DNA of 64,000 nt, taken from NCBI GenBank assembly GCA_015065385.1, contig SVQK01000110.1, forward strand, positions 3,902-67,901, read 5' to 3'. The DNA comes from Oscillospiraceae bacterium (lineage in GTDB: Bacteria > Bacillota > Clostridia > Oscillospirales > CAG-272). This document shows, piece by piece, positions 1 to 17,918 of the stretch. The translations under genes and the position numbers were made by a program. Position 1 is the stretch's first letter; each line of letters starts with the position of its first letter. A model generated the notes under the pieces. The model did not search any database, was not told where the DNA came from, and worked only from the letters and a program-made list of their open reading frames with translations.

Positions 1-3000
1 ATAAGTTTCAGTATTATTAATCACAAAAGTACTAAAATCATATCCATATACGTCAACCATGTCTTTAATTGTATTGGGATCATTCTCATTATGTGTCAAA
101 CCATTCAACATAGGATGCGTCGGTGTTGCTTCCAGTTCATAGTGCCCATCAATGCCAGGTTCCAATACCATGTAGGTATGGCCGGTTGTATCCATATGTC
201 CGTTTTGGTCATATACGCCAGGGGCAATCGAAAGACTCTGCTCCCATCCACCGGTTTCATTAAGTTCTGCTTTGAAATAATAGAAAGGTCTAAAATTGGT
301 TTCAGCAAGCTTTATTGCCGAAACTTTTTCATCTTCATTTACAATCTTATTTGCCGATTCTATTGAGTTTATATAGGTCTCATATGCATTATTAAAAGCC
401 GCAATCGTGTCTTCCGTAGGATCCACTAAAACATATAAATCAACTGCACTTGGCTTATCCTCATCTGAAAGCGTAGAATTCCATATTTTCTTTAAATTAA
501 TCTGTGTATTATCAAGAGGCATGCCTCCAACTTCAGGAAGTGTTACAGTCATCTCATCCGATTTTACAACAACAGGATGTCCATTTTCAGTTGTAACAGT
601 AGTTTCCTTAAATTTCACGTTTGCATTTGTATTTGTTCTTAAGACATAAGGTATTTGTGAATTATCTATCTGCACTCTGTATTCATCAAATTGAATCGAA
701 GGCTCATTAGGATCATATGTAAAATCTTGTCCCCATTTGAATCCGTCAGGATCATCAATACCGTTATTTAGTGCAGCAATTATGTCATATGAAGGCTGAC
801 TCGGCCAGATCTTAAATTTGACTTTATACGTCCATCCTTTCTCTGTATAGTAGTCAGATCCATCTGCCTTAACCAACTTCCATTCAACATTCTTTTCTGT
901 TGATTCACCCTGTCCTTTCTTACTGAAAACAGCCCCCTTAATCTGAACAGGATTTGTTGTAATTGTTTCTAATTTCCCTTTTCTAATGGCATGATAAGTA
1001 ATTGCAGGGATCGAAATTATTTGATTATTACCGTTTCCGGAAACTACAATCGGGACTGTTTTCTCTTCATACGCCGTCAGTGAAGTATAATCTCTATAAG
1101 TAATTGTATATTCAAATGATTCCGGATCAACATCTTCAAAAGTGACAGTTGTCATTTCAGAGATACCATCATAAATATCAACATCGCTGTATGTGAAATT
1201 CTGACTGATTACACGAAGTATCTTATTAAGTCTTTCTTGAAGAGCGGCTCCATTTGTTGCAAAGAAGCGACATTCTTGTGCTGCATTATCATCGTTGTAT
1301 GCATAGTTAATCAAATCACCAATATAGTCATTAGTTTCATCAACACTTGTGCCATATGAGAAAACTCCAAAGAAGTATGCTCCAGTTGAAGCTAAAGCTC
1401 TTGCCTCATCTCTTGCGCCAAGATAACATCCTTGCCCATCAACGAATAAATCATCTGTATACTTACTTGTATTCCAATATTGAGACGGAGCGCCATCAGT
1501 TAAAAACAATACATAAGTCGGATCATCATCATCCAAACTACCAACCATCGTTTTGGCTAAATCTAACGCTTCTGCCCAGTTTGTTCCGCTGGCAGTACTT
1601 GCTGAATTTAGGCCGTTTTTAATGTCACTTGCTTTATCAGTCCAATTTGCTCCTATAGATGCGCTTTTATTGAATGTAATCAAGGCATATTCTATCGATC
1701 CTGCATGCTCTCCTGTATTTTGTGCTTCTAATTGATCTAGAAATTGTCCAACTTTTTGCTTTGTTTGAAATAGTCGGCTATTCGGATTTGTTAAATAATC
1801 AGAGAGCTTATCTCCTTCTGTACCATCTGGTTTTAAATTTTGAGGTCTTTCCATACTACTTGAATAGTCAACCACAAAGAGAATATTAACATTATTTTTA
1901 TCCTGATCTTTCTGAGCGGTTGTAGAAGCACTTAATTCAAGATTGTATGTCCCATCATAATTTGAAGATAACTGTTTATCATGTCCGATAGCTCCTAAGT
2001 CCGGAGGTTGAATATTATCATCATCTCCCGCGTTTTCGTGTGTATATAATGGAGAACTATAAACCAAATAATAATCTTTTATACCGTCATATACAGGTGT
2101 CTTATCAATTCCCCCATTATGGTCTTTACTTGAAAATCTTGGTCTATATCCTGCTTCCATCCAATCTGATCCAGCTTTATCACTGTTTGTAAAGAAAGTA
2201 TAGTAGTACACTTTCCCTTGATCTGTCAGCTTTAGTTCGTTACCAATTATTGAATGGGGTTGCTGTGTATTTTCTTGATCACCTGGTTTAGGAATATAAT
2301 TCCCACTATTATTTTTCATAATATCTTCATGAGTCTGACGATGTGTATTACTTAACGTCATCCCATTAGGAGCTATAAACTGAGAAAGATCTATTAGCAT
2401 ATCATTCGGATTATCCGGATCCGGCGTCATTACAAGATAATCATAGTTAATATGTTCACCATTTACTGTTTCACCATTAATATAGGTCACATCAATTGTT
2501 TTTCCTTGCTCATTTACGAAGTGCAATCTTACATCAAGTGTGTTTGTATTTACTGCTTCGGATAGATATAGCCACTCTTGATGATAATCATCAAGCAAAC
2601 TGCATTCCGTTTGAGTACTTAATGTATATACATTCTCTCCCAGACTGTACAAATTCAAATATGATATTTCTTGTCCATTTGGATATGTAGAAATTCTATA
2701 CCTGCTGGGATTCGAGTCATCAACTTCCACAAAGAACAAAGTGGCATTATTGGTATTATTTGTCAACGATAAACCATTATTAAAGCTCAAATACGAATCG
2801 TTATGTTTGATTTTATAAGTGCTGCCCCAATTTGAAGGTGAATACTCAAATGTCCAGTATTCGGCATTATTGTTGTTCGCATTAACAGCCTGAAGTGACG
2901 TTCCCCAATAACCTGTATTAATCCCCGAGGACATTTGAAGTCCTTGTTCACCTGCCGAACTTGTTATACGGAATGTACGTCCATTCAGTTGTGCTTCTAT

Positions 3001-4155
3001 TTGTGCATCCGTTACAGTTATTATAAATTCTTCCTCATTATTCATTACAATCTTTAATGCCTGTCTTGACAAGAACGGTTTTATGGATATAAAAGCCCAA
3101 TCCCCGGCTTTTATTACTTGTGTTTCAAAAAACTCTTTCTGCTCTTCTGTTAACTCTATCGAATACTGGTCTTCAAGTTCCTGTTGTATCTTTATATCTC
3201 TTACTGTTGTATCTGTTTCTATTTTTCCAACCCATACTAATTCTGTATCACTAAATTCAGCTGTCTTGATATTATCTATAAACGACCATACTTCGTTCTC
3301 TTCCGTTTCTGGATTGTCAGTTATAACCCCCAGCACCGGCAACAGATCACTAAGCCCAATTCCGCTTCCGCCAGTGATGCAGTATTCAAATTCCTTCCCA
3401 TCAACTTCGTAACTGAAATCAACAGTATAAACCACCCCATACACAGAGAATCCCGTGGCAACAAAACTGACCGTACCTGCTTCGCTTGAAGTTACGGTAG
3501 CAGGTTCAGCAGTGAACGTGGCTGCATTTTCTTCTTGTGCGACATAGTCTTCAACGTTCGGGTTATCTTCTACATCCATCGCGGCTTGCTCGGATTCGCC
3601 GTTCAGTTTCAGACCGTTTGAAACGTAAGCAAAATTCTCGTCCGTTGTCCATCCCTCTTCGGCATCGGCCTGTTCAAAATCCGCATTTGCCTTAAAATGG
3701 AACACGTTAACTTCTGCGCATTCGGGAAGATCGATCTCTCCCATATCGATAGAAACACCAACAGGGACGGCAGGTTCTATTTCCCGGCCATCCTCGTCAA
3801 GGATAGATATTTCGAAGAATCGGCTATAGACAGCCTTCTGACCGACTCTAAGATATGATTCAGCAGCTCTGAGGTATTCATCCGCATCCATCACTTCGCT
3901 TGTAGTAAGTGAAGCGTTAGCGGGAATCTCAGCGTCTTCGCCGTAGTTTACCTTGATGGAATAGTCTCCATTATCGGGTAATCCGACCAGCTCGCCCGCG
4001 TCATATGTCTTCTTCTCCGTCGTTACAACGGCTATCGTCACTGACAGAGCCGGCGCGGCGAGGCTAAAAAGCATCACACATGCCAACAAGAGTGAAAGAG
4101 CTCTCCTCCCCACTCTCCTGTAATGATAGATTGCTTCAAGCGTTCTGAGTTTCAT
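1..4155 (-). CDS. vWA-domain pilus tip adhesin-like surface protein (N-terminus complete; C-terminus beyond the window edge, >=1385 aa)
   Basis: Absent from the ORF track because it has no stop in the window. Hand translation of the minus strand from ATG 4155-4153 (AAGGAG 8 nt upstream) stays open to base 1. Signal peptide MKLRTLEA..LLLACVMLFSLAAPALS. vWA/MIDAS motifs VNILFVVDYSSSM (DxSxS), SGTNW and YVLFLTDGAPS. Lies directly downstream of a class C sortase and an LPXTG pilin. Confidence 0.8.
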   Translation of the reverse strand, partial: MKLRTLEAIYHYRRVGRRALSLLLACVMLFSLAAPALSVTIAVVTTEKKTYDAGELVGLPDNGDYSIKVNYGEDAEIPANASLTTSEVMDADEYLRAAESYLRVGQKAVYSRFFEISILDEDGREIEPAVPVGVSIDMGEIDLPECAEVNVFHFKANADFEQADAEEGWTTDENFAYVSNGLKLNGESEQAAMDVEDNPNVEDYVAQEENAATFTAEPATVTSSEAGTVSFVATGFSVYGVVYTVDFSYEVDGKEFEYCITGGSGIGLSDLLPVLGVITDNPETEENEVWSFIDNIKTAEFSDTELVWVGKIETDTTVRDIKIQQELEDQYSIELTEEQKEFFETQVIKAGDWAFISIKPFLSRQALKIVMNNEEEFIITVTDAQIEAQLNGRTFRITSSAGEQGLQMSSGINTGYWGTSLQAVNANNNNAEYWTFEYSPSNWGSTYKIKHNDSYLSFNNGLSLTNNTNNATLFFVEVDDSNPSRYRISTYPNGQEISYLNLYSLGENVYTLSTQTECSLLDDYHQEWLYLSEAVNTNTLDVRLHFVNEQGKTIDVTYINGETVNGEHINYDYLVMTPDPDNPNDMLIDLSQFIAPNGMTLSNTHRQTHEDIMKNNSGNYIPKPGDQENTQQPHSIIGNELKLTDQGKVYYYTFFTNSDKAGSDWMEAGYRPRFSSKDHNGGIDKTPVYDGIKDYYLVYSSPLYTHENAGDDDNIQPPDLGAIGHDKQLSSNYDGTYNLELSASTTAQKDQDKNNVNILFVVDYSSSMERPQNLKPDGTEGDKLSDYLTNPNSRLFQTKQKVGQFLDQLEAQNTGEHAGSIEYALITFNKSASIGANWTDKASDIKNGLNSASTASGTNWAEALDLAKTMVGSLDDDDPTYVLFLTDGAPSQYWNTSKYTDDLFVDGQGCYLGARDEARALASTGAYFFGVFSYGTSVDETNDYIGDLINYAYNDDNAAQECRFFATNGAALQERLNKILRVISQNFTYSDVDIYDGISEMTTVTFEDVDPESFEYTITYRDYTSLTAYEEKTVPIVVSGNGNNQIISIPAITYHAIRKGKLETITTNPVQIKGAVFSKKGQGESTEKNVEWKLVKADGSDYYTEKGWTYKVKFKIWPSQPSYDIIAALNNGIDDPDGFKWGQDFTYDPNEPSIQFDEYRVQIDNSQIPYVLRTNTNANVKFKETTVTTENGHPVVVKSDEMTVTLPEVGGMPLDNTQINLKKIWNSTLSDEDKPSAVDLYVLVDPTEDTIAAFNNAYETYINSIESANKIVNEDEKVSAIKLAETNFRPFYYFKAELNETGGWEQSLSIAPGVYDQNGHMDTTGHTYMVLEPGIDGHYELEATPTHPMLNGLTHNENDPNTIKDMVDVYGYDFSTFVINNTETY

Positions 4156-4260
4156 GGTAGTATCTCCTTGGATATGCTGTTGATTCGAGGATACATTGTT
4201 TTTTAACAATCTTTAATTAAGGCCCTAAAATTATATTGAGCCACAACCCTTATAGACTAT

Positions 4261-4316
4261 GAAAGATCAGTCTCAACATCCAGTTCACATGCCCTGTTGG
4301 TAATAACTGATCTTTC
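4261..4316. repeat. 11-bp perfect inverted repeat (GAAAGATCAGT / ACTGATCTTTC) with a 34-nt spacer in the AT-rich sortase-adhesin intergenic region
   Basis: Arms 4261-4271 and 4306-4316 are exact reverse complements, read directly. Confidence 0.6.
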
Positions 4317-4360
4317 CATTCGCCTACACAACCCATTCTTTATGGGAGGGTAGATATATA

Positions 4361-5323
4361 TTATCTCTTTCCTCGAGGTTTCTTATTGTCTTTCTCTGTT
4401 GCCTTTTCCGCTTCGCCCCAGAGGTCGTAGTCTCCCATCATCGGGTTCTCTTCCATCTGGTTCAAATAGGCAAGCGCCGCTTTATACAGCTGATCTCTTC
4501 TCTTCTTCTCTCTCTGGTTGCCGCCGAGAGCTACGACGAGCAGCAACAGAAGCAGGATCGGAGCCATCACGACCGGCGTCACCACCAGCGGATCGATCTT
4601 CATGGCCTCGGACGTGAAGTGCAGCGTGTGATCCACGATGTTCTCCACGCGTGTCCCCCGCACCAGTAACCTATGCGTGTTGATACCGTACGGCGTACAG
4701 GTCACGAGCGTCACATAGTCCTCACCCGGATAGATCTTCATCAGTTCCACATCTTCCGGCAGAACGATGTTGATCTGATCCACCTCGTAGGAGTATTCCT
4801 CTCCGAGGATGTACAGCGAGAACCGGTCGCCGACGCGGAGCTTGTCGAGCTCTGTGAACAGCTTCGCGGACGGCAGTCCCCGGTGTCCGGAGATCACCGC
4901 GTGGGTGCTTTCTCCGCCGACCGGAAGGCTGGACCATTCGAGGTGTCCCGTGGCAATCTGCAAAACCGCGTCGCTCGTTCCGTGGTAGATACCGAGATAG
5001 CACTTGATCGCCGGGATCTCGATATACCCCATCATCCCCGAACCGTTGAAGTTCAGCTGGGACTCATAGTCGGCAAGCTCGTCCTCTTTCAGTAGACGGG
5101 CCGTTCCTCCGACTTCCGCCCACCGTCTGTTGTATTCCTGAGCCGCGTACCGGATTTCGTCCAGCGCGCTTGTGTCCATTGCGGCGATTTCGTCCGCGTA
5201 GGAAGCGATCGCTCTCGATTGATGGAAGGAGTTCCAGTAATCGGAAAAGGAAGGATAGAGCAGGAGTCCCACGCCGATGAAAAAGGCCAGAACCAGAAAG
5301 ATATTCGTAATTCGGTTCTTCAT
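4361..5323 (-). CDS. srtC: Class C (pilus-polymerising) sortase
   Basis: TLVTCTP catalytic Cys motif, HAVISGHRG His region and LLVRGTRV Arg. N-terminal TM (MKNRITNIFLVLAFFIGVGLLLY) plus a C-terminal hydrophobic anchor (PILLLLLLVVALGG), typical of class C. Start moved to the ATG at 5323 within track ORF 4361..5428. Flanked by pilin and adhesin genes. Confidence 0.9.
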   Translation of the reverse strand: MKNRITNIFLVLAFFIGVGLLLYPSFSDYWNSFHQSRAIASYADEIAAMDTSALDEIRYAAQEYNRRWAEVGGTARLLKEDELADYESQLNFNGSGMMGYIEIPAIKCYLGIYHGTSDAVLQIATGHLEWSSLPVGGESTHAVISGHRGLPSAKLFTELDKLRVGDRFSLYILGEEYSYEVDQINIVLPEDVELMKIYPGEDYVTLVTCTPYGINTHRLLVRGTRVENIVDHTLHFTSEAMKIDPLVVTPVVMAPILLLLLLVVALGGNQREKKRRDQLYKAALAYLNQMEENPMMGDYDLWGEAEKATEKDNKKPRGKR

Positions 5324-5385
5324 GCGCCCGCGCTCTGCTCCTTTGTCCTCCCGTGGGATGATTGCTTTACACTGTGTTTCCGGGG

Positions 5386-5448
5386 AGAAAACTGAACCCG
5401 GAGGTTCAGCGCTCTCCCCGCCGGGCAAACCGTGTGCAGCTTGCCCGG
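5386..5448 (-). terminator. Two tandem hairpins between pilin and sortase genes; the second is followed by a T-run (partial terminator/attenuator)
   Basis: On the minus strand: CCGGGCAA-12 nt-TTGCCCGG (5448-5421), then CTGAACC-tccg-GGTTCAG (5409-5392) followed by TTTTCTCC. Confidence 0.5.
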
Positions 5449-5488
5449 ACGGAGTTGTTTAGTTGGTTTGTTTCAGATCAAAGACCGA

Positions 5489-7678
5489 TTAGTCGTCAAC
5501 CTTGCCCATTCTCTTCTTGGAGACGAGCACAACGCCCGCGCCAACCGCCAGCAGACCGCCGACGATGTAGAAGATCGTGGTACCGATACCACCAGTGGAG
5601 GGAAGCTCGGTGCCCTGAGTATTCTTCAGGAACGTCGTATTATCAGCTTCCTGAATAATAGTTTCCCGTTCGGCTTCTTTGTGCTGATTTGTCCAAGAAC
5701 CAGTGGATGCAGTACTTGTAGAACCAATCACAGTAAATGCATTAATTCCAGTTCCTTCTGTAGCAACATCATTATCAGGAGCTGCCTTATAAGTCGGAGT
5801 GCCATAATCAAGAGTATACTTTGAGGTAACAGTATTATCTCCGTCTTTCACAGCAACAGTATAGAAGTCAAGAACTTTGGAAGAATAAGTAATAACGATG
5901 CCGTTTACTTCTTCTTTGACGGTGACTTCTTTGTAAGTGGGAGTTATCGTGATTTCCTTTACTGTTCTGTCAGCAATAAATCCATCCGGTGCCTTGGTCT
6001 CGACAAGGTAGTATGTACCAGCATCCAAACCTCTGATATCAAGCTTACCCACATTATTACTGGTAAATCTTGCAACAGCGCGGTCATCGGCAGCATAGTA
6101 AGCATTGGTGTAAATCCCGTCTGCAGTGGCCAGTTCATCGTAACTCTTCTTCACAGTTGCAGCAGCTTGGGCAGCAGCTTCAGTTGTGAACAGACCAAAT
6201 ACAGCCCCTTCAAGAGGATATGCCTTTACACCATTATCATAAGATTCAAGTTTCTTTTCAGTAATCCAATTTCCTGCAGCATCAATTCCAACTTTAACAA
6301 GTTCGGAAGTATCATAGCCACCAGATTCCTCTCCATTAATGTCAGCATCAAGGGAGAAAGAGTAATGAGTTGTCACATCCTTAATGATTCCAGTATCGGA
6401 TTCATTTGCGGGGTTATTAGAATACTCAACTTTAACTTCGTTCTTTGTCTGATCTACATTGTGATACGCAGCAGTCGTAACTTTAGCTTTATAAGTGATT
6501 TCAACATTCTGTTTCTGATTCTGAGACAGAATATATTCAGAAGAGAATTCGACAGCAATGCTTGTTCCTTCGTTGGTAAATGTAACAGATTTGAATACCG
6601 CTTTTGCAGGGGTACCAAAAGTGTATTTAGTTGTATGGTTTGTAACATCATCCGCAGAAGCAAACTCAAAAGTATCGTTTCCAACTTTTACTGTAAACTT
6701 ATTTGTTGTATCAAGTACAGTCTTCAGGCCATTAGACAGAGTATCAGTTACATTAAACTTAGCCCAAGTATAGTTGTCAGCATATTCAGGCATCTGAGTC
6801 GAAATCTTAAAATCCAGAACTTCGCCAACATCCGCTGTAGCAACTGTCTTGGAAGGATCCTGAGCAGGAGTGGTATCGCTATCTGTTACTTCCTTTGTAA
6901 CAGTGATATCTGATTTTTTAGCGATTGCAGTATCGGAATAAGAATCAGAAGTAGTAATTGCCCATTCATTATGGAATTTAGTATCACCCTCACCTGTAAT
7001 CTGTTCCTGACTAAAGTCGGCAGATACAAATACAGGATTGTACATTACGCCCTCTTCACCGGCATCGATAAGGGCAAGATAAAGACCGGGCTTGATTTTC
7101 TGAGCACCCGCGGTAGAAGCATCAGAATCATCATAGGTGGAACTGGTGCTGGAGATTTGCGAATCAGTGTATGCTACAGTTGCGGGTTTGGTTTTCGCAA
7201 TTTCAGCAATTTCAGCCGCGAGAACAGAGTTGATTCTACCAAGAACCTTTTCTTTTCCTTCAGGAATTTCAACTCCCGTACCATCTTCCTTTACTTGATA
7301 TCCAGCAGGCATACCGGTGATATAGGTGAGAACACTCTTTGCAAAATTATCACGAATTGCTTTTTCTGTGTCACTAGCACCAACGACATAACCATTACTG
7401 TCCAGTCCAGAGGTTGCAAGCCCGTTAAAGTCAGTTGTTAAAGCCCAACCTTCGCTGTCAACCCATTCGATTACCTGATAGTACTTCACAGTGTCTCCTG
7501 CTTTAAGTGCTGTAATCGTTACTGAAGGATCCTGAGTAACGTTTCCAGCTGGTGTAGAAGCAACAGGAGTGTCACTTTCAGTCGGGGTAACCGGGTCATC
7601 CGCAAACGCCGCAACACCCAGCCCAAGCACCATCGTGATGCTCAGAAGCAGTGCGAGAATCTTTTTGAAGTTTCTCAT
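5489..7678 (-). CDS. LPXTG-anchored pilin (probable major/backbone subunit)
   Basis: Signal peptide MRNFKKILALLLSITMVLGLGVAAFA. C-terminal sorting signal LPSTGG + hydrophobic stretch + KKRMGK. Cna-B/SpaA-like segment GAVFGLFT..GTYYLVETKAPDGF. The track ORF starts at TTG 7699; the ATG at 7678 gives a better signal peptide. Confidence 0.85.
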   Translation of the reverse strand: MRNFKKILALLLSITMVLGLGVAAFADDPVTPTESDTPVASTPAGNVTQDPSVTITALKAGDTVKYYQVIEWVDSEGWALTTDFNGLATSGLDSNGYVVGASDTEKAIRDNFAKSVLTYITGMPAGYQVKEDGTGVEIPEGKEKVLGRINSVLAAEIAEIAKTKPATVAYTDSQISSTSSTYDDSDASTAGAQKIKPGLYLALIDAGEEGVMYNPVFVSADFSQEQITGEGDTKFHNEWAITTSDSYSDTAIAKKSDITVTKEVTDSDTTPAQDPSKTVATADVGEVLDFKISTQMPEYADNYTWAKFNVTDTLSNGLKTVLDTTNKFTVKVGNDTFEFASADDVTNHTTKYTFGTPAKAVFKSVTFTNEGTSIAVEFSSEYILSQNQKQNVEITYKAKVTTAAYHNVDQTKNEVKVEYSNNPANESDTGIIKDVTTHYSFSLDADINGEESGGYDTSELVKVGIDAAGNWITEKKLESYDNGVKAYPLEGAVFGLFTTEAAAQAAATVKKSYDELATADGIYTNAYYAADDRAVARFTSNNVGKLDIRGLDAGTYYLVETKAPDGFIADRTVKEITITPTYKEVTVKEEVNGIVITYSSKVLDFYTVAVKDGDNTVTSKYTLDYGTPTYKAAPDNDVATEGTGINAFTVIGSTSTASTGSWTNQHKEAERETIIQEADNTTFLKNTQGTELPSTGGIGTTIFYIVGGLLAVGAGVVLVSKKRMGKVDD

Positions 7679-7707
7679 TTGTTTCTTTTTTCCTTTCAAA
7701 TAATGTA

Positions 7708-7744: not shown

Positions 7745-9955
7745 TCAGAAAGCCTCGGTCGTAACGGTGACGCTGCCTCTGCGGAAAGCGTCGGGGGTGA
7801 GCTCGGTGACTTCGCCGAACTCGTTCACGCGGTACACCCTGCAGTCCGCTCCGTCCTCCGTCTCGATGCCCTCCACCGTGACCTGTACGGGTCCGAGCGG
7901 GAGGATCTCAACGAGGGTGTAGGGGCGTTCTTCGGGTTCGCCCTCGGCGTCCTGTTCAGGTTCGGCGGTCGTCTGTTCCGGTTCGGCAGCTGCCTGCTCC
8001 GGATCATTGGTCGCCTCCTGTGCCTGAGGATCTTCCGCCGGCGTCATCTCTTCCGTCGGTTCCGGATCCGCGGGCAGGTCCGCGTCGGACTTGAAGCCTT
8101 CCATCTCGAAGGGGCCGAAAGCCGCGAACTCGTCTTCCGTCGTGAAGAAGTCTTCCGTTGTAAAGAAGTCTTCTTCCTCGGGAGCTTCGTTCTCCCCGGC
8201 CATGCCGTCGTTACCTTCGGCGTCGGCTGCGGGTTCGAATTCCTTATGCCAGATCGAGATTTCAAACAGTCTCGTTTCCGCCGCTTTCATCCCGTCGGGA
8301 GCGAGCAGCGAATCGATGGACTGTACCGCGCTGTCGTAGGGGTCGGACGCGTCTTCCGCCTCGCCGTTCCCGTCCTCGACCTCGGAGATCTTGAGCACAA
8401 GCTCTTCCGCGGGGAAGGAGAAGGATCCGGCATCGGCAAAGAGCGTCGCCGTAATGCCAAAGCCCGTATCTGCCGTGAGAAGCACGTCGGTCGGGCCCGC
8501 TGTCAGCGGGATGTCGGCCTCGGGAATCGCTTCCCCTGCCGCCGCCGTCATGACAGCGTTTTCTTTCTGAACTTCTTCGGGCGTCAGCCGCGGTTCGGGG
8601 TTCTCCGGCAGAGCCAGATAAGCCGCGATGTGTCCGGCAGAGAGGGTAAAGAATTCTTCTCCCACGCCCTGCTGACGCTGACCCATGATCAGGGTGATTT
8701 CGGTATCGGGCCCATCCTCGGTTTCGATCTCGTTCAGCGCGCTGACGATACCGGCCCGGTCGATCAGACCGTCGCCGTCGTCGTCGCAGAACGCGATATC
8801 GCCGGGTACGGGAGCCTCTTCCGCTTCCCTCAGAAGTCCTTGATCCGCCGCGGTCGTGATCCACCGCGCGGGACTGGGATCGACCGGAACGCCGTAGATA
8901 CCCGCGTAGTGCAGGCAGAACATGACGAACAGTCCGTTCCAGTCTTCGTAGGGATTGCCGTACCATTCGCCGTAACGGGTGTAGCCCCGCTTGACGTTGT
9001 AGGCGTCCGTAATAAAGTTGAGTTCGCTTTCACGGTAGCCCTCCTGGCTCCTTGCGACGGCCACAAGGTCGTCGGACCAGACGCCGGTCAGCTCCGTGTT
9101 GATCAGAGTGGATTCCCAGTCAAGGGAGATTTCCACGTCTGCGTGAGGATCGCCCGTCAGCTTCGGATAGCAGTCGTCCGTGTGGACGTGCTCTTCCTTG
9201 CCGCAGACGAGAACCTCGACCGTTTCATAGCAGTACTCGTTGTGTATGTGGCCATAGCCTGCGGGAACCTCGCAGATAAACCGCGGTGTCCGCACGATAC
9301 ACTCTTCGGTGTGTACATGCTCCGGATCTTCTTCCAGACCGCAAACGAAGGTTTCCTCCCATTCGATGCAGTCGGCGGTATGTTCGTGAACCGCTCCCGC
9401 CTCCAGTCCGCAGACCGGAACCGGATTCGGGTCAAGACAACCTTCGCCGTGGGTATGCCCTTCGCTCTGTTCGAGACCGCAGATATATTCATAGCATTCC
9501 GCGCCGTGTATGTGTTCCGGATCTTCGTCCAGTCCGCATACCGTCACCCACCGTTCGCCGTAGCAATCCTCCGTGTGCTCGTGTTCCGGATCGTCTTCCA
9601 GACCGCACAGGAGAACGGTTTCGGTCGCCCGGCACTCTTCGCCGTGAACATGACCTTCGCTCTCTTCAAGACCGCAGATATACCCGGGATTCGAGAGGAA
9701 ACAATCCTCGGTGTGAATATGTCCTTCGTTCTCCTCAAGGGGACATATGAGCCGCGTCTCCGTGGCGTAACACTCTTCCGTGTGGGTATGTTCTTCAAAA
9801 CCGCACGCAGGAGCGTATTCCGTCGTAGTCGCAGGCATAACCAGCGCCGCAACGGTCGTAACTGCTACCGCCGCCGCGAGCCACGAGAAGGCGACTTTTC
9901 GCTTTCTTCGCTTTACCGCGGTCTGAACGGCTTCGTTACTCAAGTATAAATCCAA
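7745..9955 (-). CDS. Membrane-anchored protein of unknown function: N-terminal TM, ten C-x5-8-H-x-H-x3-C repeats, degenerate CHAP/NlpC-P60-like region, adhesin-like module, acidic tail
   Basis: 736-aa ORF (TTG start, GGGGGA upstream). First gene behind the consensus promoter at 10195-10223 and co-oriented with pilin, sortase and adhesin. The 756-aa plus-strand ORF 7679..9949 is its Arg-rich antisense shadow. Confidence 0.75.
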   Translation of the reverse strand: MDLYLSNEAVQTAVKRRKRKVAFSWLAAAVAVTTVAALVMPATTTEYAPACGFEEHTHTEECYATETRLICPLEENEGHIHTEDCFLSNPGYICGLEESEGHVHGEECRATETVLLCGLEDDPEHEHTEDCYGERWVTVCGLDEDPEHIHGAECYEYICGLEQSEGHTHGEGCLDPNPVPVCGLEAGAVHEHTADCIEWEETFVCGLEEDPEHVHTEECIVRTPRFICEVPAGYGHIHNEYCYETVEVLVCGKEEHVHTDDCYPKLTGDPHADVEISLDWESTLINTELTGVWSDDLVAVARSQEGYRESELNFITDAYNVKRGYTRYGEWYGNPYEDWNGLFVMFCLHYAGIYGVPVDPSPARWITTAADQGLLREAEEAPVPGDIAFCDDDGDGLIDRAGIVSALNEIETEDGPDTEITLIMGQRQQGVGEEFFTLSAGHIAAYLALPENPEPRLTPEEVQKENAVMTAAAGEAIPEADIPLTAGPTDVLLTADTGFGITATLFADAGSFSFPAEELVLKISEVEDGNGEAEDASDPYDSAVQSIDSLLAPDGMKAAETRLFEISIWHKEFEPAADAEGNDGMAGENEAPEEEDFFTTEDFFTTEDEFAAFGPFEMEGFKSDADLPADPEPTEEMTPAEDPQAQEATNDPEQAAAEPEQTTAEPEQDAEGEPEERPYTLVEILPLGPVQVTVEGIETEDGADCRVYRVNEFGEVTELTPDAFRRGSVTVTTEAF
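9170..9805 (-). repeat. Coding tandem repeat array: 10 units of 19-23 aa, each with 2 Cys + 2 His (consensus CGLEExxEHxHTxEC)
   Basis: Residues 51-262 of the 7745..9955 protein. Units read: CGFEEHTHTEEC, CPLEENEGHIHTEDC, CGLEESEGHVHGEEC, CGLEDDPEHEHTEDC, CGLDEDPEHIHGAEC, CGLEQSEGHTHGEGC, CGLEAGAVHEHTADC, CGLEEDPEHVHTEEC, CEVPAGYGHIHNEYC, CGKEEHVHTDDC. Confidence 0.85.
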
Positions 9956-10194
9956 ATCGTTTCACATCCCCCTTCGTCGCGTCGGAGCGTTAATCACATC
10001 GGCCCGACATCGGATGATATCCCGCCTGACAAAGCTGACTATCATAGCGTGGGTTCGGCGGTTCCGCCCCTTTTTTCGGATCTAAATCCGGCTCGGAGCG
10101 GTTTTCCGGCAACCCGGCAGGGTTCCGCACAGATCCTGTCTGCGTCGGACGGCTCCCGGGCCTGCTCTCCGTAAACCCCAAAGATACATTGTTG

Positions 10195-10223
10195 ATTATA
10201 TCACGCTTTGACCGCCCTGTCAA
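10195..10223 (-). promoter_or_regulatory. Consensus sigma-A-type promoter of the pilus operon
   Basis: On the minus strand, TTGACA (10223-10218), a 17-nt spacer, then TATAAT (10200-10195). It lies ~235 nt upstream of the first start codon. Confidence 0.6.
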
Positions 10224-10700
10224 TGGGAGGCGTTCGTTTTCTCGCATGAAATCCGGTAATTTTTTCCCGCGGTTCCTGACTGTTTTACCCATCAGGAACC
10301 GCCCGCTTCTCGGAATCAGGCTACAGAAACGCACCCACTCCCGACCGGTTTCAGGACAAACTGCCCTGAGTTTGCAGTCTGTATTATACAACACCTCTTT
10401 CTCAATTGCAAGTCCACTTGCATGAACGGCGATTTTTCTGCATGAAAATCCATCCGTTTGCAGAGCGGCTTCCGATTCGCCGTCGCCGGGATAGGCTTGT
10501 CCCTGTCCCGCCCGGAGTCAGGCCGAATCCGGCTTAGGGCGCGCGTTCCGACCGACGCGGGCTTCGATCGTGAGCGCTGTGTCTGAACGAACCGCGGATC
10601 CCTGTTGTGTGATTTTTCCTGCCCCGCGGCGGTTCGTTCTGTCCCTTCTGCCCCGTAAACAATCCGCCTTCCCCGAATGTTGCACCGATCGGAAATTTTT

Positions 10701-11321
10701 TCAAAAAAATTTTTGGAGCGCGGATCCGTCCCCCGTCACGACCGCGTCCGCTCGGATATCGTTCCCGTCCGCGGGGATCTCCTCCGTCAGAAGCGCCTCG
10801 TGGCAGAGGCAGAGGACCGCGGTCTTCTCTTCCCGGTTCGGGGAGGCAAGCGGCGCGAGATACCGGTCGTAGTACCCCGCCCCGTGGCCCAGCCGCTCCC
10901 CCCTCCGGTTCGCCGTCACGCACGGCGCGAGGATCAGATCGACCTCAGCCGCGGCGGCGGTCTCGGGCGGATCGTCCGGATCAAAGACCGGCTCCGGGAT
11001 CCCGAGCGTCCCCGGCAGAAGTTCTTCCATCGACCGGATCCGCACGGCAAGCATGGTCCGCTCCGGCCCGGGGAGGCATTTCGGCACATAGACCCGCTTC
11101 CCCTCAAGGAGAGCCTGCTTGATCAGCCCGCGCATGTCCGGTTCTTTCCCCACGCTGACATACAGGAACACCGACTCGGCGTCCCGCCAGATCCGCGAGG
11201 CAAGGAGTTCCGCCTCGATCTTCCGGGAGGATTCCGTCGCCGCCTCCTCCGTCATCCCGTCCGCCCGCCGCCGGATCCGCTCCCGCAGACGCCGTTTTTC
11301 CGCGCCGATCTCCCGCTCCAT
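10701..11321 (-). CDS. 5-formyltetrahydrofolate cyclo-ligase
   Basis: Size (206 aa) and family-typical layout: REKRRLR.. N-terminus, ..FLYVSVGKE..T, ILAPCVTANRRGERLGHGAGYYDRYL. Confidence 0.8.
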   Translation of the reverse strand: MEREIGAEKRRLRERIRRRADGMTEEAATESSRKIEAELLASRIWRDAESVFLYVSVGKEPDMRGLIKQALLEGKRVYVPKCLPGPERTMLAVRIRSMEELLPGTLGIPEPVFDPDDPPETAAAAEVDLILAPCVTANRRGERLGHGAGYYDRYLAPLASPNREEKTAVLCLCHEALLTEEIPADGNDIRADAVVTGDGSALQKFF

Positions 11322-11510
11322 CCATCGATCCCGTCCTTTCGTTTCTTCCCTATTTTATATAGTATAGCACGCCCCCTGGTTCCCGTCAAGAGAATCCCCC
11401 GTCCCCGTCCGCAAACAGGCAAAAACGCCGGGCGGGGTGGGCAGAATCCCCCGCTTCTCTGTGAAGTTTCACGATTTTCACCGCTTTGTCCTCCGGTTTC
11501 CGAAAACCTC

Positions 11511-11539
11511 TTGACAGGAGGGTGTTTTCTGCGTATAAT
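11511..11539 (+). promoter_or_regulatory. Promoter of the arg operon
   Basis: TTGACA (11511-11516), a 17-nt spacer, then TATAAT (11534-11539). It lies 43 nt upstream of the argC ATG. An AT-rich ATTATTCAAAA follows the -10 (only a partial ARG-box match). Confidence 0.6.
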
Positions 11540-11581
11540 TATTCAAAATCGCTGAAAAAGTATGCGCAAAGGAGGCGGCAC

Positions 11582-12517
11582 ATGGCGACGGTATTCATCG
11601 ACGGAGCGGCGGGCACCACGGGACTGCGGATCCGTCAAAGACTCGGCGGCCGAAAGGACCTGACGCTGATCGAACTCGACGAGGAAAGGCGCAAGGATCC
11701 CGGAGCCCGAGCGGACGCGCTCAACCGTGCGGACTGCGCGATCCTCTGCCTCCCGGACGCCGCTGCGGAAGAGGCGGTCTCCCTGATCGATCCGGCCAAC
11801 GACCGGACGGCGGTGATCGACACCTCCACGGCGCACCGGACCGCTCCCGGCTGGGTCTACGGATTTCCCGAGCTCACCGGCCAGCGTGAAAATATCCTCC
11901 GATCGAAGCGCATCGCCAATCCTGGATGCCACGCAAGCGGATTCATCGCGCTGATCGCTCCCCTGAGAGAGGCCGGAATCCTGTCGGAGGACGCCGCGCT
12001 CTCCGCTTTCTCCCTGACCGGCTATTCCGGCGGCGGCAAGAAGATGATCGCGGAATACGAAAGCCCTGCCCCGTCCCCCCTGCTCTCCGCCCCCCGGATG
12101 TACGGCCTCGGCCAGAATCACAAGCATCTCCCCGAAATGGCCGCCGTCGCGGGGCTGAGCGTCCCCCCGGTCTTCTGCCCGATCGTCGCGCCGTATTACA
12201 CCGGCATGGAGGTGACCGTCCCCCTGTTCGCCCCGCCCGTCGGCGGATCTCCCGGTCAGATCGCGGAGATTTACCGGGCGTATTACGGCAAGTCGCCCGG
12301 CGCGGTCCGGTTCTCCGATTCGGCGGACGAAGACGGATTCCTCTCCGCCTCCGCGTTCGCCGGTCGGGACGACATGGAAATCGCCGTCTTCGGGAACGAT
12401 GACCGCATCCTCCTCACCGCCCGGTTCGACAATCTCGGCAAGGGCGCGTCCGGAGCGGCGGTGCAGAACCTGAATCTTCTCCTCGGAGCGGACGAATTCG
12501 CGGGACTTGTCCTGTGA
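11582..12517 (+). CDS. argC: N-acetyl-gamma-glutamyl-phosphate reductase
   Basis: MATVFIDGAAGTTG Rossmann N-terminus and an NPGCHASG active-site Cys region. RBS AAAGGAGG precedes the ATG at 11582. Followed by argJ, argB and argD. Confidence 0.9.
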   Translation: MATVFIDGAAGTTGLRIRQRLGGRKDLTLIELDEERRKDPGARADALNRADCAILCLPDAAAEEAVSLIDPANDRTAVIDTSTAHRTAPGWVYGFPELTGQRENILRSKRIANPGCHASGFIALIAPLREAGILSEDAALSAFSLTGYSGGGKKMIAEYESPAPSPLLSAPRMYGLGQNHKHLPEMAAVAGLSVPPVFCPIVAPYYTGMEVTVPLFAPPVGGSPGQIAEIYRAYYGKSPGAVRFSDSADEDGFLSASAFAGRDDMEIAVFGNDDRILLTARFDNLGKGASGAAVQNLNLLLGADEFAGLVL

Positions 12518-12576
12518 GCGTCCTCCCCGTCCGATTCTTTCCTTATTATTCTATCTACAGTGCAACGGAGACTGAC

Positions 12577-13794
12577 ATGATGAAACAAATCACAGGCGGT
12601 GTGTGCGCCGCGAAAGGATTTACCGCGTCCGGCGTCCACTGCGGCATCCGGAAAAACAGGACGAAAAAGGATCTCTCCCTGATCGTCAGCGAGACAAAAG
12701 CGGCGGCTGCGGCGGTCTACACCTCCAATCTGGTCAAAGGCGCGCCCCTCGCCGTAACGAAGAAGCATCTCTCCGACGGATACGCGCGCGCGGTCATCTG
12801 CAACAGCGGAAACGCCAACACCTGCAACGCGGACGGCGAAGAAGTGGCGGAGAAGACCTGCCGCCTCCTCGCGGACGCCATGGGCATCGCGGCGGATGAC
12901 GTGGTCGTCGCCTCCACCGGCGTGATCGGACAGCCCCTTGACGTCGCCCCCATCGCGGAAGGCATCCCGGCGCTGATCTCCTCCCTCTCCCCGGAGGGAA
13001 GCGACGACGCGGCGGAAGGCATCATGACCACCGACACCGTCAAAAAGGACGTGGCTGTGGAATTCGAGCTGGGCGGCAAAATCTGCCGGATGGGCGGCAT
13101 CGCCAAGGGCAGCGGCATGATCCACCCGAACCTCGCCACTATGCTTGTATTCATCACCACCGACGCCGCCGTCTCGCCGGAGCTCTTGGAAAAGGCCCTG
13201 CGCTCCGACGTGGCGGACTCCTTCAACATGGTTTCCGTGGACGGCGATACCTCCACCAACGACATGGTCACCGTGCTGGCCAACGGCGCGGCGGGAAATC
13301 CGACGGTCACGGAAGAGGGGCCCGACTTCGACGCCTTCCGCGCCGCTCTGAAATTCGTCACCACGGGCCTCTGCCGGATGATCGCGGGGGACGGCGAAGG
13401 CGCGACGAAGCTGCTCGAATGCGTCGTGACCGGCGCGAATGACGAAAAGACAGCCAAAACCGCGGCGAAGGGCGTCATCACATCATCCCTTTTGAAAGCA
13501 GCCATGTTCGGCGCGGACGCCAACTGGGGACGTGTTCTCTGCGCTATCGGATACAGCGGAGCCGACGTGGATCCCGCGAAGATCGGCGTATCCTTCAGGA
13601 GCCGCGCAGGCGAGATCAAGGTCTGCGAAAACGGAGCGGGCGTGGACTTCTCGGAGGAGCTCGCAAAGGTCGTCCTCTCGGAAAACGAAATCGATATTCT
13701 GGTTTCCCTCGGCGACGGACCGGTTTCCGCGACCGCATGGGGATGCGACCTGACCTACGAATACGTCAAAATCAACGGGGACTACCGGACATAA
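12577..13794 (+). CDS. argJ: Bifunctional glutamate N-acetyltransferase / amino-acid acetyltransferase
   Basis: KGF.A.GVHCGI N-terminus and the autoprocessing site PNLATMLVFITTDA. GGAG RBS before the ATG at 12577. Confidence 0.9.
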   Translation: MMKQITGGVCAAKGFTASGVHCGIRKNRTKKDLSLIVSETKAAAAAVYTSNLVKGAPLAVTKKHLSDGYARAVICNSGNANTCNADGEEVAEKTCRLLADAMGIAADDVVVASTGVIGQPLDVAPIAEGIPALISSLSPEGSDDAAEGIMTTDTVKKDVAVEFELGGKICRMGGIAKGSGMIHPNLATMLVFITTDAAVSPELLEKALRSDVADSFNMVSVDGDTSTNDMVTVLANGAAGNPTVTEEGPDFDAFRAALKFVTTGLCRMIAGDGEGATKLLECVVTGANDEKTAKTAAKGVITSSLLKAAMFGADANWGRVLCAIGYSGADVDPAKIGVSFRSRAGEIKVCENGAGVDFSEELAKVVLSENEIDILVSLGDGPVSATAWGCDLTYEYVKINGDYRT

Positions 13795-13804
13795 GGAGAC
13801 AAGA

Positions 13805-14677
13805 ATGGACTGTTTTTCCAACGCGGAACGTGCTGAGGTCCTCACGCAGGCTCTTCCCTACATCCGCCAGTACCGCGGGCGCACCGTCGTGGTGAAATAC
13901 GGCGGAAACGCGATGATCAATCCAAAGCTCAAGGCGCAGGTCATGGAGGATATCGTCCTTCTGTGGCTGATCGGCGTCAAGGTGGTTCTCGTCCACGGCG
14001 GCGGTCCCGAAATCACGGAGCTCATGGAAAAGCTCGGAAAAAAGGCTGAATTCGTGGACGGACTCCGCGTCACCGACCGGGAGACCGTGGATATTGTCCA
14101 GATGGTGCTCGCGGGCAAGGTTTCGAAAACGCTCGTCAATCTTTTAGAGATGAAGGGCGGGCGCGCGGTGGGGATCTCCGGCATGGACGGACGCCTCATC
14201 GAGGCCAAAGTCAAGGATCCGCGCCTCGGCTATGTGGGAGAGATCACCGCCGTCAACATCGAGCCCATCGCGGATCTCTTGGACAAGGGATACATTCCCG
14301 TGGTGTCAACGCTCGGATGCGACGAGGAGGGCAACACCTACAACATCAACGGGGACACCGCCGCCGCAAGGATCGCCGGAGCCCTCGGCGCGGAACGCAT
14401 GATCCTCATGACGGACATCGCCGGAATCCTGCGCGACAAAGACGATCCCTCGACGCTGATTCCGGAGGTCTCGGTGTCCGAAGCCGCAAGGCTCAGGGAA
14501 GAGGGCGTCGTGTCCGGGGGCATGATCCCCAAGGTGGAGTGCTGCGTGGAGGCCATCCGGCGCGGCGTGAAGAAGGTCATCATCATGGACGGCCGGGTCC
14601 CGCACTCCATTCTGATGGAGCTGCTGACGGACGAAGGCGCTGGGACCATGGTCGTAGGAGAGGAGCGGGACAAATGA
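13805..14677 (+). CDS. argB: Acetylglutamate kinase
   Basis: TVVVKYGGNAM, VLVHGGGP and NINGDTAA motifs. AAGGAG RBS. Confidence 0.9.
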   Translation: MDCFSNAERAEVLTQALPYIRQYRGRTVVVKYGGNAMINPKLKAQVMEDIVLLWLIGVKVVLVHGGGPEITELMEKLGKKAEFVDGLRVTDRETVDIVQMVLAGKVSKTLVNLLEMKGGRAVGISGMDGRLIEAKVKDPRLGYVGEITAVNIEPIADLLDKGYIPVVSTLGCDEEGNTYNINGDTAAARIAGALGAERMILMTDIAGILRDKDDPSTLIPEVSVSEAARLREEGVVSGGMIPKVECCVEAIRRGVKKVIIMDGRVPHSILMELLTDEGAGTMVVGEERDK

Positions 14678-15840
14678 GCGGAAGCATCCGGAAACTGGAC
14701 GAACAGTATATCGCGGGGACGTACAAGCGGTTCCCCGTTGAAATCGCCTCGGGCAGCGGCTCCGTAGTGACGGACACCGACGGCAAAACCTATATCGACC
14801 TCGGATCGGGGATCGCGGTGACCTCCTTCGGCATCGCGGATCCGGTCTGGCAGGCGGCGGTGATCGAGCAGATCGGCAAGGTTCAGCACACCTCGAACCT
14901 GTACTATACCGGCCCCTGCGCCGCACTCGCCGAACAGCTCTGCCTGCGCACCGGGATGAAGAAGGTCTTCTTCTCCAACTCCGGAGCGGAGGCCAACGAA
15001 TGCGCGATCAAGGCCGCCCGGAAATACGCGGCGGAGAAAAAAGGCCCCGAGCACTTCACCATCGTGACCCTGAAAAACAGCTTTCACGGCAGAACCCTCA
15101 CCACCCTCTCCGCCACCGGTCAGGAGCACTACCACGAGCTGTATCAGCCCCTCACCCCCGGGTTCGCCCATGTGACGGCGGGGGATCTCGACGAGCTGAA
15201 GCAGGTCTGTGCGGAGACAAAGGCCGCCGGGATCCTCGTCGAATGCGTTCAGGGCGAGGGCGGCGTGGTTCCGCTCGATCCCGCGTATGTCGAAACCGCC
15301 GCGGATTATGCGAACGAGAACGACATCCTCTTCATGGTGGACGAGGTTCAGACCGGGAACGGACGCACGGGCGCGCTTTACGCCTATATGAATTACGGGA
15401 TCTCCCCCGACGTCGTCTCCACCGCGAAGGGACTGGGCGGCGGACTTCCCATCGGCGCGACTCTGCTCGGAGAGAAAGCGCAGAACGTATTCGGATACGG
15501 CGACCACGGCTCCACGTTCGGCGGAAATCCCGTCTCCTGCGCGGCGGCTCTCTCCGTTCTGAACCGGATCGACGATGAACTGCTGGAAAACGTGAAGCGG
15601 AAGAGCGCGTTCCTCTTCGGCAGATTCGAAGGAGCGGAGGGCGTGGAATCCGTCTCCGGTATGGGTCTCATGATCGGAATCAAGACGAAAAAGCCCGCCG
15701 CCGAGGTCGTTTCCGCCGCAATGAACAACGGCGTGCTCGTTCTCACCGCAAAGGACCGCGTCCGTCTCCTTCCCGCGCTGAACATCCCGGACGACCTGCT
15801 CGAAAAAGCCGCCGCCGTCCTGCTCGAAGCGATGAAATAA
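14674..15840 (+). CDS. argD: Acetylornithine aminotransferase
   Basis: Class III aminotransferase motifs (FFSNSGAEANE, DEVQTGNGRTG, PLP-Lys region VSTAKGLGGG). ATGA start/stop overlap with argB. Start placed inside track ORF 14317..15840. Confidence 0.9.
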   Translation: MSGSIRKLDEQYIAGTYKRFPVEIASGSGSVVTDTDGKTYIDLGSGIAVTSFGIADPVWQAAVIEQIGKVQHTSNLYYTGPCAALAEQLCLRTGMKKVFFSNSGAEANECAIKAARKYAAEKKGPEHFTIVTLKNSFHGRTLTTLSATGQEHYHELYQPLTPGFAHVTAGDLDELKQVCAETKAAGILVECVQGEGGVVPLDPAYVETAADYANENDILFMVDEVQTGNGRTGALYAYMNYGISPDVVSTAKGLGGGLPIGATLLGEKAQNVFGYGDHGSTFGGNPVSCAAALSVLNRIDDELLENVKRKSAFLFGRFEGAEGVESVSGMGLMIGIKTKKPAAEVVSAAMNNGVLVLTAKDRVRLLPALNIPDDLLEKAAAVLLEAMK

Positions 15841-15898
15841 GCGGAAACAGGGAAAAGAGGGGAAAAATCCCCTCTCTGAAGCAAAACAATATGACAGG

Positions 15899-15932
15899 GG
15901 ATCGACCAAAACAGGCCGATCCTTTGTCTTTC
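15899..15932. terminator. Weak hairpin between convergent argD and pepF
   Basis: GGATCG-12 nt-CGATCC followed by TTTGTCTTTC. The stem is short. Confidence 0.35.
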
Positions 15933-15942
15933 AACTCACCGT

Positions 15943-17754: not shown

Positions 17755-17918
17755 CCGTATTCCTCTTTCCCGCCGAATCCGGCGTTTATTCTCCGCGCCG
17801 CTGAACCGCATCCCCTTTTTTGCGTTCAGCGGTACAATTCTGTCGCTGTTATTATACAGATAAATCGGCGCGGTGTCAACAGAAAAAGCCCGGCGTTTTC
17901 AGCCGGACTCTTCCCTTT

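Follow-up and report, generated by a model that had tools for sequence, protein, structure and literature searches.

The 64-kb stretch of DNA analysed here (contig SVQK01000110.1 of an Oscillospiraceae bacterium; hereafter the window, to which all coordinates refer) contains a sortase-pilus operon whose first gene, at 7745..9955 on the reverse strand, encodes a protein of 736 residues, referred to below as the target. Homologous proteins carry P-numbers and family loci L-numbers. The target comprises a hydrophobic N-terminal segment, ten Cys2His2 repeats, a domain of the CHAP/NlpC-P60 fold and a C-terminal beta-sandwich. The sortase-pilus operon itself is of a known kind; what is new is the type of head protein within it, here split off and inactivated. 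With a probability of about 0.6, we regard the target as a head that has become detached from its adhesin and is catalytically dead, the intact adhesins forming a large family of CHAP-headed proteins at pilus tips, and as a non-catalytic binding module that is exported and co-produced with the pilus. Its architecture, its homology to this family, the loss of four catalytic residues, purifying selection and a conserved place ahead of the pilin gene, behind a promoter and a leader, are established by the results given here, and it is its precise role that we infer from the sequence.

Downstream of the target, on the same strand, lie genes for a major-pilin-like LPXTG protein with SpaA and GramPos_pilinBB domains (5489..7699), a class C sortase (4361..5323; the open reading frame (ORF) extends to 5428, with ATG 5323 as the likely start; NF033745, 258.6 bits against a cut-off of 160) and a VWA/DUF7604 adhesin of at least 1385 residues (1..4155), which has its own signal peptide and runs out of the window. 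The preliminary description of this locus had placed the target in the pilus operon. This is supported by the short gap of 45 nt between target and pilin gene, in which no terminator is predicted, and by conserved synteny. No homologue of S26 signal peptidases was found anywhere in the window.

The ORF of the target starts with a TTG codon, and a second TTG at 9943 gives a protein of 732 residues, as called in P0001. A hydropathy scan confirmed the single N-terminal hydrophobic segment first described (residues 21–40; 9836..9895, reverse strand), a putative signal anchor or uncleaved signal peptide. Residue 21 is the hydropathy maximum and starts the sole strongly hydrophobic 19-mer of the protein, right after RRKRK. 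Together with the P-A-T-T motif that follows it (MPATT), the segment makes up the N-terminal hallmark of the family. Likewise, the stated lack of an LPXTG signal was upheld by a motif scan of the whole protein, whose C-terminal end reads ...VTVTTEAF. The target matches no Pfam or NCBIfam model at E≤1; there is no Cna-B/SpaA Ig-like domain and no VWA domain (Pfam), nor any similarity to S26 signal peptidases (PF10502, PF00717 and TIGR02227 all unmatched), and PADLOC returned nothing useful.

Residues 272–455 (8591..9142, reverse strand) constitute the CHAP/NlpC-P60-fold domain. In the alignment, homologues with intact catalytic residues read YGDW-C-AMF, D-H-VGIV and TI-E-G-N, and at the same blocks the target reads YEDW-N340-GLF, D-R400-AGIV and LI-M424-G-Q426. 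All four catalytic positions are therefore substituted in the target (Cys to Asn340, His to Arg400, Glu to Met424 and Asn to Gln426). These replacements, read there as WN, RAGIV and MGQ, and the expectation that proper alignment would reveal no intact catalytic Cys or His, had been put forward in the preliminary description. The Glu-x-Asn pair is an additional catalytic pair of the LysK CHAP domain. The Cys-His pair is strictly conserved in the CHAP/NlpC-P60 superfamily (PMC5146660). On the N-terminal side, ARSQEGYRES and GYTRYGEWYG of the target represent the family blocks SQxGYxES and GYTRYGxWYG.

The assignment to the CHAP fold was examined with profiles, as suggested at the outset, and with predicted structures. 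The profile route succeeded through the relatives of the target: PF05257 (CHAP) was matched by 19 of 19 intact homologous segments, 34–45% identical to the target segment (best 8e-14), and many of the 645 homologues from a first search carry it. The structural route gave a positive result for the target itself. In an AlphaFold model of residues 45–470, the block means of the predicted local distance difference test score (pLDDT) in the CHAP domain are mostly 90 or above (range 83–97), and Foldseek returned 13 matches among viral models at E≤1e-3, the best at 2.9e-8. Twelve of these 13 are named, all as CHAP, NlpC/P60, TIGR02594 or PlyB-like endolysin; one is unnamed. Alignment, the Pfam matches of homologues and the predicted fold agree that this is a real CHAP-like module, with a papain-like alpha+beta fold in the model, and that its sequence is that of a catalytically dead domain.

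The domain is under purifying selection. The ratio of non-synonymous to synonymous substitution rates (dN/dS), calculated against two orthologues, is 0.17–0.25 for the CHAP domain and 0.18–0.23 for the repeats, and 0.23–0.38 for the whole gene (L085 and L086). These low values, with the retention of the W-N and D-R combinations across most of the head-only clade, point to inactivation rather than decay. In the wider family the nucleophile column is variable; among 80 loci (L001–L080) it holds Cys in 38, Ser in 16, Asp in 11 and Asn in 4, with 11 unclear. Family members without the nucleophile Cys often retain the His and the Glu.

Between the hydrophobic segment and the CHAP domain, residues 51–262 (9170..9805, reverse strand) consist of Cys2His2 units, C-x4/7-H-x-H-x3-C. 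A regular-expression count gave exactly ten, at intervals of 19–23 residues. Number and interval are as previously described, and the spacing reported with them (x5–8) is corrected here to C-x4-HxH-x3-C in the first and last unit and C-x7-HxH-x3-C in the other eight. The same two spacings together dominate across 246 family proteins (x7 in 1521 units, x4 in 821). Family proteins contain from 3 to 44 units, a range that fits a spacer or stalk, and alignments show the Cys and His columns to be invariant or nearly so across homologues. The AlphaFold model of the array displays a repeated pattern of a short helix and a strand, with stretches that are confident and others that are unconfident. The array has no Pfam match and no PDB sequence match, and no ORF with three or more repeats in the absence of a CHAP domain occurs among the neighbouring ORFs of the 80 loci. 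From its sequence, the knuckle array could act as a rigid, metal-stabilised spacer.

The C-terminal region is modelled by AlphaFold as a single beta-sandwich (pLDDT 85–95), broken by an insertion. On the reverse strand, its first half occupies residues 485–575 (8231..8503) and its second half residues 679–736 (7748..7921); the intervening acidic residues 576–678 (7922..8230) are predicted to be disordered (pLDDT around 50) and are the least conserved part of the gene. In P0022, P0072 and other relatives the two sandwich halves are contiguous. What had been regarded as an acidic tail forming a fifth part of the protein is thus an insertion inside the beta-sandwich, in which the reported EDFFTT-EDFFTT duplication is present as an 18-nt tandem repeat (8132–8173; TRF). 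Foldseek found no significant PDB match for the sandwich.

In the family this beta-sandwich usually stands behind CHAP; the adhesin of the window begins with it as well, and there the module common to both proteins covers residues ~45–190 (3586–4023, reverse strand). A module shared by the two proteins had been noticed earlier, and its homology is supported by 11 intermediate proteins which the profiles of the target module and the adhesin module match at overlapping coordinates. Moreover, in P0094, P0077 and P0068 the segment behind CHAP is matched by the N-terminal domain of the adhesin with E between 1e-11 and 1e-10.

The relatives of the target are numerous and mostly much larger. A phmmer search with residues 45–470 against representatives of 50% clusters retrieved 4360 cluster representatives, 3295 of them at E≤1e-10 and 1474 at E≤1e-30. 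The best 150 are mostly 1400–3700 residues long, with the knuckle and CHAP module near the N-terminus. The 120 homologues listed from the first search all have 4–20 knuckles and a CHAP-like domain, many of them fused to SpaA, Cna-B, VWA or LPXTG. Among 21 giant proteins screened with Pfam, Cna_B was found in 10, SpaA in 10, CHAP in 10, DUF7601 in 7, VWA_2 in 7, the LPXTG anchor in 6 and DUF7604 in 5, and the LPxTG sorting signal is invariant at the end of their alignment. The order within the giant proteins is Cys2His2 stalk, CHAP domain, small beta-sandwich and a body of VWA, Cna-B and SpaA domains; some shorter members (P0098, P0091 and P0043) contain a 'tip pilin GBS104-like' Ig domain. The view that no known pilus accessory has the architecture of the target does not hold for sequence space, the knuckle and CHAP module being present in thousands of protein clusters as the head of giant LPXTG adhesins. 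Since the module is normally the head of LPXTG adhesins in the first position, a description as a detached head suits the target better than one as an assembly accessory of a new class. No description of a knuckle and CHAP pilus-adhesin family was found in the literature; a paper on a goat-rumen CHAP protein was considered and set aside, as the architecture it describes is different.

A scan of one genome per species detected at least 574 family loci in Oscillospiraceae, Lachnospiraceae, Christensenellales and relatives, the nearest being that of a rumen 'Ruminococcus sp.' metagenome-assembled genome (MAG). Eighty loci were fetched, and operon counts were made on the 44 in which the gene is complete and downstream DNA extends for at least 4 kb. 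A sortase homologue is present in 38 of the 44 (downstream on the same strand in 33), the head gene has its own LPXTG in 30, and an LPXTG protein of at least 250 residues is encoded within 600 bp downstream in 31. The anticipated co-occurrence with sortase and pilin genes is accordingly found in most of these loci. Furthermore, in 50 of the 70 loci with upstream DNA the gene directly upstream, on the same strand, matches the signal peptidase of L089, with a median gap to the adhesin gene of about 20 nt (for example L016 8821–9402 and L089 5001–5465); two such upstream genes, checked against NCBIfam, scored above the TIGR02227 cut-off. The usual operon is composed of signal peptidase I, CHAP-headed giant LPXTG adhesin, pilin and class C sortase. 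A signal peptidase gene of the SipA/LepA-related kind, listed at first among the known pilus accessories, belongs to the usual operon of the family and is absent from the window.

A PAxT-type motif stands behind the hydrophobic segment in 92 of 120 homologues, and the dedicated signal peptidase may recognise or cleave the protein in this region. The conserved motif (residues 38–45 of the target, compared with the N-termini of P0037–P0120) takes the form VVFCTTYALILPAIT in the majority of giant members; the clade of head-only proteins has LINPATT or LVMPATT. The family also includes short (473–479 residues), LPXTG-less and apparently active members away from pilus loci (L072, L078, L080, L087 and L088; the P0079 group). 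Bins labelled Bacteroides uniformis, Prevotella and Lachnospiraceae also contain similar forms, 478–479 residues long and identical in their catalytic motifs; mis-binning is the probable cause.

The target is a head-only form: it does not run on into an LPXTG body, and a body-like adhesin is encoded by a separate gene (1–4155). Head-only proteins form a clade (P0001–P0031) of dozens of 90% clusters, 38–98% identical and 520–750 residues long, in which W-N and D-R are mostly kept. A pilin or pilin-like LPXTG gene lies directly behind the head in 11 of 11 relatives examined (among them L002, L003, L004, L081–L086 and the P0028 contig), and L083 has head, pilin, sortase and a large SpaA protein in an order identical to that of the window. 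No signal peptidase gene was seen directly upstream in the head-only contexts examined. In giant members, the body behind CHAP is collinear with the adhesin of the window (P0134, E 1.4e-61; P0240; P0208). Head and adhesin of the window together amount to the giant protein of the relatives, each piece with a copy of the junction domain.

Two further observations concern this clade. In L081 (7672–8352) and L082 (596–1276), a protein of 226 residues, rich in Cys and with several CxCxCG-type motifs, is encoded 27 nt upstream of P0010; it has no Pfam or NCBIfam match and is absent from the window. The rumen MAG RUG12348 has two paralogues of the head-only, dead-CHAP type, L001 and L002, whose CHAP regions show 78% and 57% identity to that of the target; behind at least one of the two lies a pilin gene.

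The 745 nt upstream of the target are a non-coding promoter and leader region. The consensus promoter noted at first inspection was found to be a 12/12 match (sigma-70-type, TTGACA-17-TATAAT with an extended TG; 10195..10223, reverse strand). Its hexamers and spacing are conserved in L084, L085, L090, L093, L001 and L092, down to about 70% protein identity. The 5' leader of ~235 nt (9956..10188, reverse strand) has invariant blocks, TCCGACGCAGACAGGATCTGTGCGGA and GCGGGA.ATCATCCG..GTCGGGCCGATGT in the alignment, and hairpins whose sequences differ between orthologues. RNAalifold predicts a helix between ATCATCC and the Shine-Dalgarno sequence GGGGGATG, covering the ribosome-binding site. A metagenome scan with the conserved block gave four matches, all four upstream of target orthologues and nowhere else in the scan. 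The leader may be a cis-regulatory RNA of unrecognised type. Rfam returned nothing for it at E≤1, on which ground a riboswitch was rejected. An ORF of 134 residues (9990..10394, reverse strand) and a 214-residue call in L084 (867–1511) run across the conserved promoter and leader and were rejected as spurious, their translations being Arg/Gly-rich and of non-coding character.

Taken as a detached adhesin head, the target would be exported through its N-terminal hydrophobic segment and, because it is without LPXTG, would not be polymerised by the sortase. Its dead CHAP groove could bind peptidoglycan or another amide-linked ligand by analogy with RipD (Rv1566c) of Mycobacterium tuberculosis, whose non-catalytic NlpC/P60 domain binds peptidoglycan (PMC12067865). 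The two proteins share a superfamily, a place in the cell envelope (presumed for the target) and an altered catalytic triad, and in RipD the domain is retained for binding (PMC12067865). RipD differs in subfamily and organism and lacks both the knuckle repeats and a link to pili; its binding is demonstrated, that of the target proposed. Two placements of the head can be envisaged. It may be tethered to the membrane, which fits the lack of the family's signal peptidase gene in the window, the PAxT motif being kept nevertheless. Alternatively, it may dock on the pilus adhesin through the beta-sandwich present in both proteins.

Several results weigh against this reading. The CHAP segment of the target itself matches nothing in Pfam, so that its CHAP homology runs through intermediate sequences and the predicted fold. 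Foldseek against the PDB gave weak results (top match 5d74, Ly7917, which we take to be a CHAP endolysin, with probability 0.97 and E 0.01, followed by calpain cores), and PDB sequence searches with the whole target, the repeat region and two profiles yielded either nothing or marginal NlpC/P60 matches of the GDLVFF..HVG type. Around half of the family lacks the nucleophile Cys, and judging by this column the ancestral role of the domain may never have been hydrolysis. Compared directly, the modules of target and adhesin are only weakly similar (BLASTP E 0.001; hhalign E 2e-4, probability 45%). Finally, two genes, for pilin and sortase, intervene between head and body, which is not the outcome of a simple split in place.

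A broader proposal, which we regard as tentative, is that the Cys2His2 stalk and the CHAP domain define a new class of sortase-pilus tip in gut and rumen Clostridia, with a head that recognises or cleaves peptidoglycan for contact-dependent adhesion to, or attack on, neighbouring bacteria. The knuckle array would then form an extracellular stalk of a new, metal-stabilised fold, and in split operons the dead head would dock non-covalently on the pilus adhesin by way of the beta-sandwich of both proteins. Comparably doubtful is a role as a dedicated accessory of pilus assembly, a membrane-anchored analogue of SipA/LepA with metal-binding knuckles that would help the sortase to polymerise or position pilins. 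The target invariably opens the operon, with the pilin gene next in line, it combines an N-terminal anchor with the lack of a sorting signal, and in a clade without the family's signal peptidase gene the head could have assumed an accessory role. Against this, the domains of the target recur in the adhesin heads of its relatives and in no known assembly factor, and it bears no similarity to S26 peptidases. Moreover, no separate head-only gene was seen in standard loci (LPXTG head-plus-body protein, pilin and class C sortase), and a separate head is thus unlikely to be generally needed for assembly. That the target is instead a wall protein unrelated to the pilus, whose non-catalytic CHAP domain binds the cell's own peptidoglycan and, for example, modulates autolysins, we consider improbable. 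The short active members off pilus loci (P0079; L072, L078 and L080) speak for it, as does a codon usage that is native-like in the target, with pilin and adhesin looking imported. The gene next to the head tells against it, being for a pilin or pilin-like LPXTG protein in every one of the 11 head-only relatives examined, as do the 45-nt gap without a predicted terminator and the domain which the target has in common with the adhesin of the operon.

The two remaining explanations are both very unlikely. One holds that the target is a decaying, functionless remnant of a tip adhesin whose body has been deleted. Catalytic residues and LPXTG-bearing body are indeed all lost, and L001 appears to be fragmented (410-residue ORF). 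On the other hand, the 736-residue ORF is intact, dN/dS is 0.17–0.25 in the CHAP domain and repeats, W-N and D-R persist in the greater part of a clade whose members fall to 38% identity, and both the promoter and the leader have been conserved. The other holds that the protein is still an enzyme and uses other residues, the candidates being Cys347 and His349 of the FCLHYAG motif. Cys347 is invariant across the family and His349 is the majority residue of its column; the two are, however, equally conserved in members with the canonical Cys-His-Glu-Asn, which makes a structural role more likely, and all four canonical positions have changed together. To our knowledge, no CHAP or NlpC/P60 enzyme uses the position of Cys347.

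The detached head was also compared with known systems. Tip adhesins of the RrgA/GBS104 type, the closest of these, combine a VWA domain with Ig-like or Cna-B domains and an LPXTG signal, and typically stand at the start of sortase C pilus operons. The relatives of the target resemble them in having LPXTG, VWA, SpaA/Cna-B and GBS104-like Ig domains and in being first in the operon, and the operon of the window resembles theirs with its pilin, class C sortase and VWA adhesin. The target differs in lacking VWA, Ig-like domains and LPXTG. We know of no tip adhesin with an N-terminal CHAP domain or a Cys/His knuckle array, and none with a CHAP head or a Cys/His array was found in the literature. 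With the CHAP and NlpC/P60 amidases and endopeptidases (PF05257 and PF00877, including phage endolysins) the target shares the fold and the order of blocks; it departs from them in its replaced Cys-His and Glu-x-Asn pairs and in the extra conserved N-terminal extension (SQxGYxES, GYTRYGxWYG). Furthermore, these enzymes have SH3b or LysM targeting domains, whereas the family of the target has an adhesin and pilus context instead.

SipA/LepA of Streptococcus pyogenes is a signal-peptidase-like pilus accessory. It provides a precedent for a non-pilin product of a pilus operon and for a pseudoenzyme in that role, and the operons of the wider family here open with a signal peptidase I. The target, in contrast, does not have the S26 fold, the window does not have a signal peptidase gene, and the two family signal peptidases that were checked exceed the cut-off of TIGR02227, the model for true signal peptidase I. 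PrgK, TcpG and CwlT are membrane-anchored peptidoglycan hydrolases of Gram-positive conjugation, active enzymes encoded in type IV secretion loci. The likeness lies in a membrane segment at the N-terminus with an NlpC/P60 or CHAP domain behind it, and in dedication to a surface appendage; the target differs in its lost catalytic residues and in having neither conjugation genes nearby nor a plasmid match. A conjugation-system hydrolase or mobile-element gene was accordingly rejected as a candidate, there being no plasmid match and no type IV secretion genes in the contexts examined; on the phage side, the only match was one unannotated metagenomic 'phage' contig. Pneumococcal Pht surface proteins contain repeated HxxHxH zinc sites. 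They are extracellular, as the target probably is, and like it have many copies of a short, His-containing, potentially metal-binding motif, which in the target is C...HxH...C with two Cys and shows no sequence similarity to theirs.

Sortase pili have been studied mostly in pathogens, and the tips described are adhesins of the VWA, lectin or thioester type for host ligands. In the present family, the position of the tip adhesin is taken by a cell-wall-amidase fold on a conserved Cys/His stalk, usually with its own signal peptidase in the operon. If the head targets peptidoglycan, pili of commensal Clostridia would bind or damage other bacteria, and abundant surface proteins of gut and rumen would have to be interpreted differently. 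About half of the loci have Ser, Asp or Asn in place of the Cys, and with the conserved, dead head-only form added they offer a natural series from enzyme to binding module. The repeat array, absent from Pfam and without a sequence relative among solved structures, lends itself to metal-binding and structural study.

Two observations on the structural pilus genes of the window remain. Comparison with L084, L085 and L086 places breakpoints in the pilin gene near 7595 and 5614. In a strain that is 97.6% identical through the target gene, similarity is gone in the pilin body and is back (94.9%) at 5614, a position adjoining the sorting signal; two more distant orthologous loci resume similarity there too. 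On this pattern, the pilin body looks like a swapped cassette between a conserved signal peptide and a conserved LPXTG end. In parallel, the GC content at third codon positions (GC3; 1–7699 compared with 7745–17811) is 0.70 for the target, 0.73 for the sortase and 0.73–0.81 for housekeeping genes, against 0.34 for the pilin, 0.26 for the adhesin body and 0.46 for the N-terminal 900 nt of the adhesin. This composition suggests that low-GC donors supplied the structural pilus genes to a resident frame of head and sortase.

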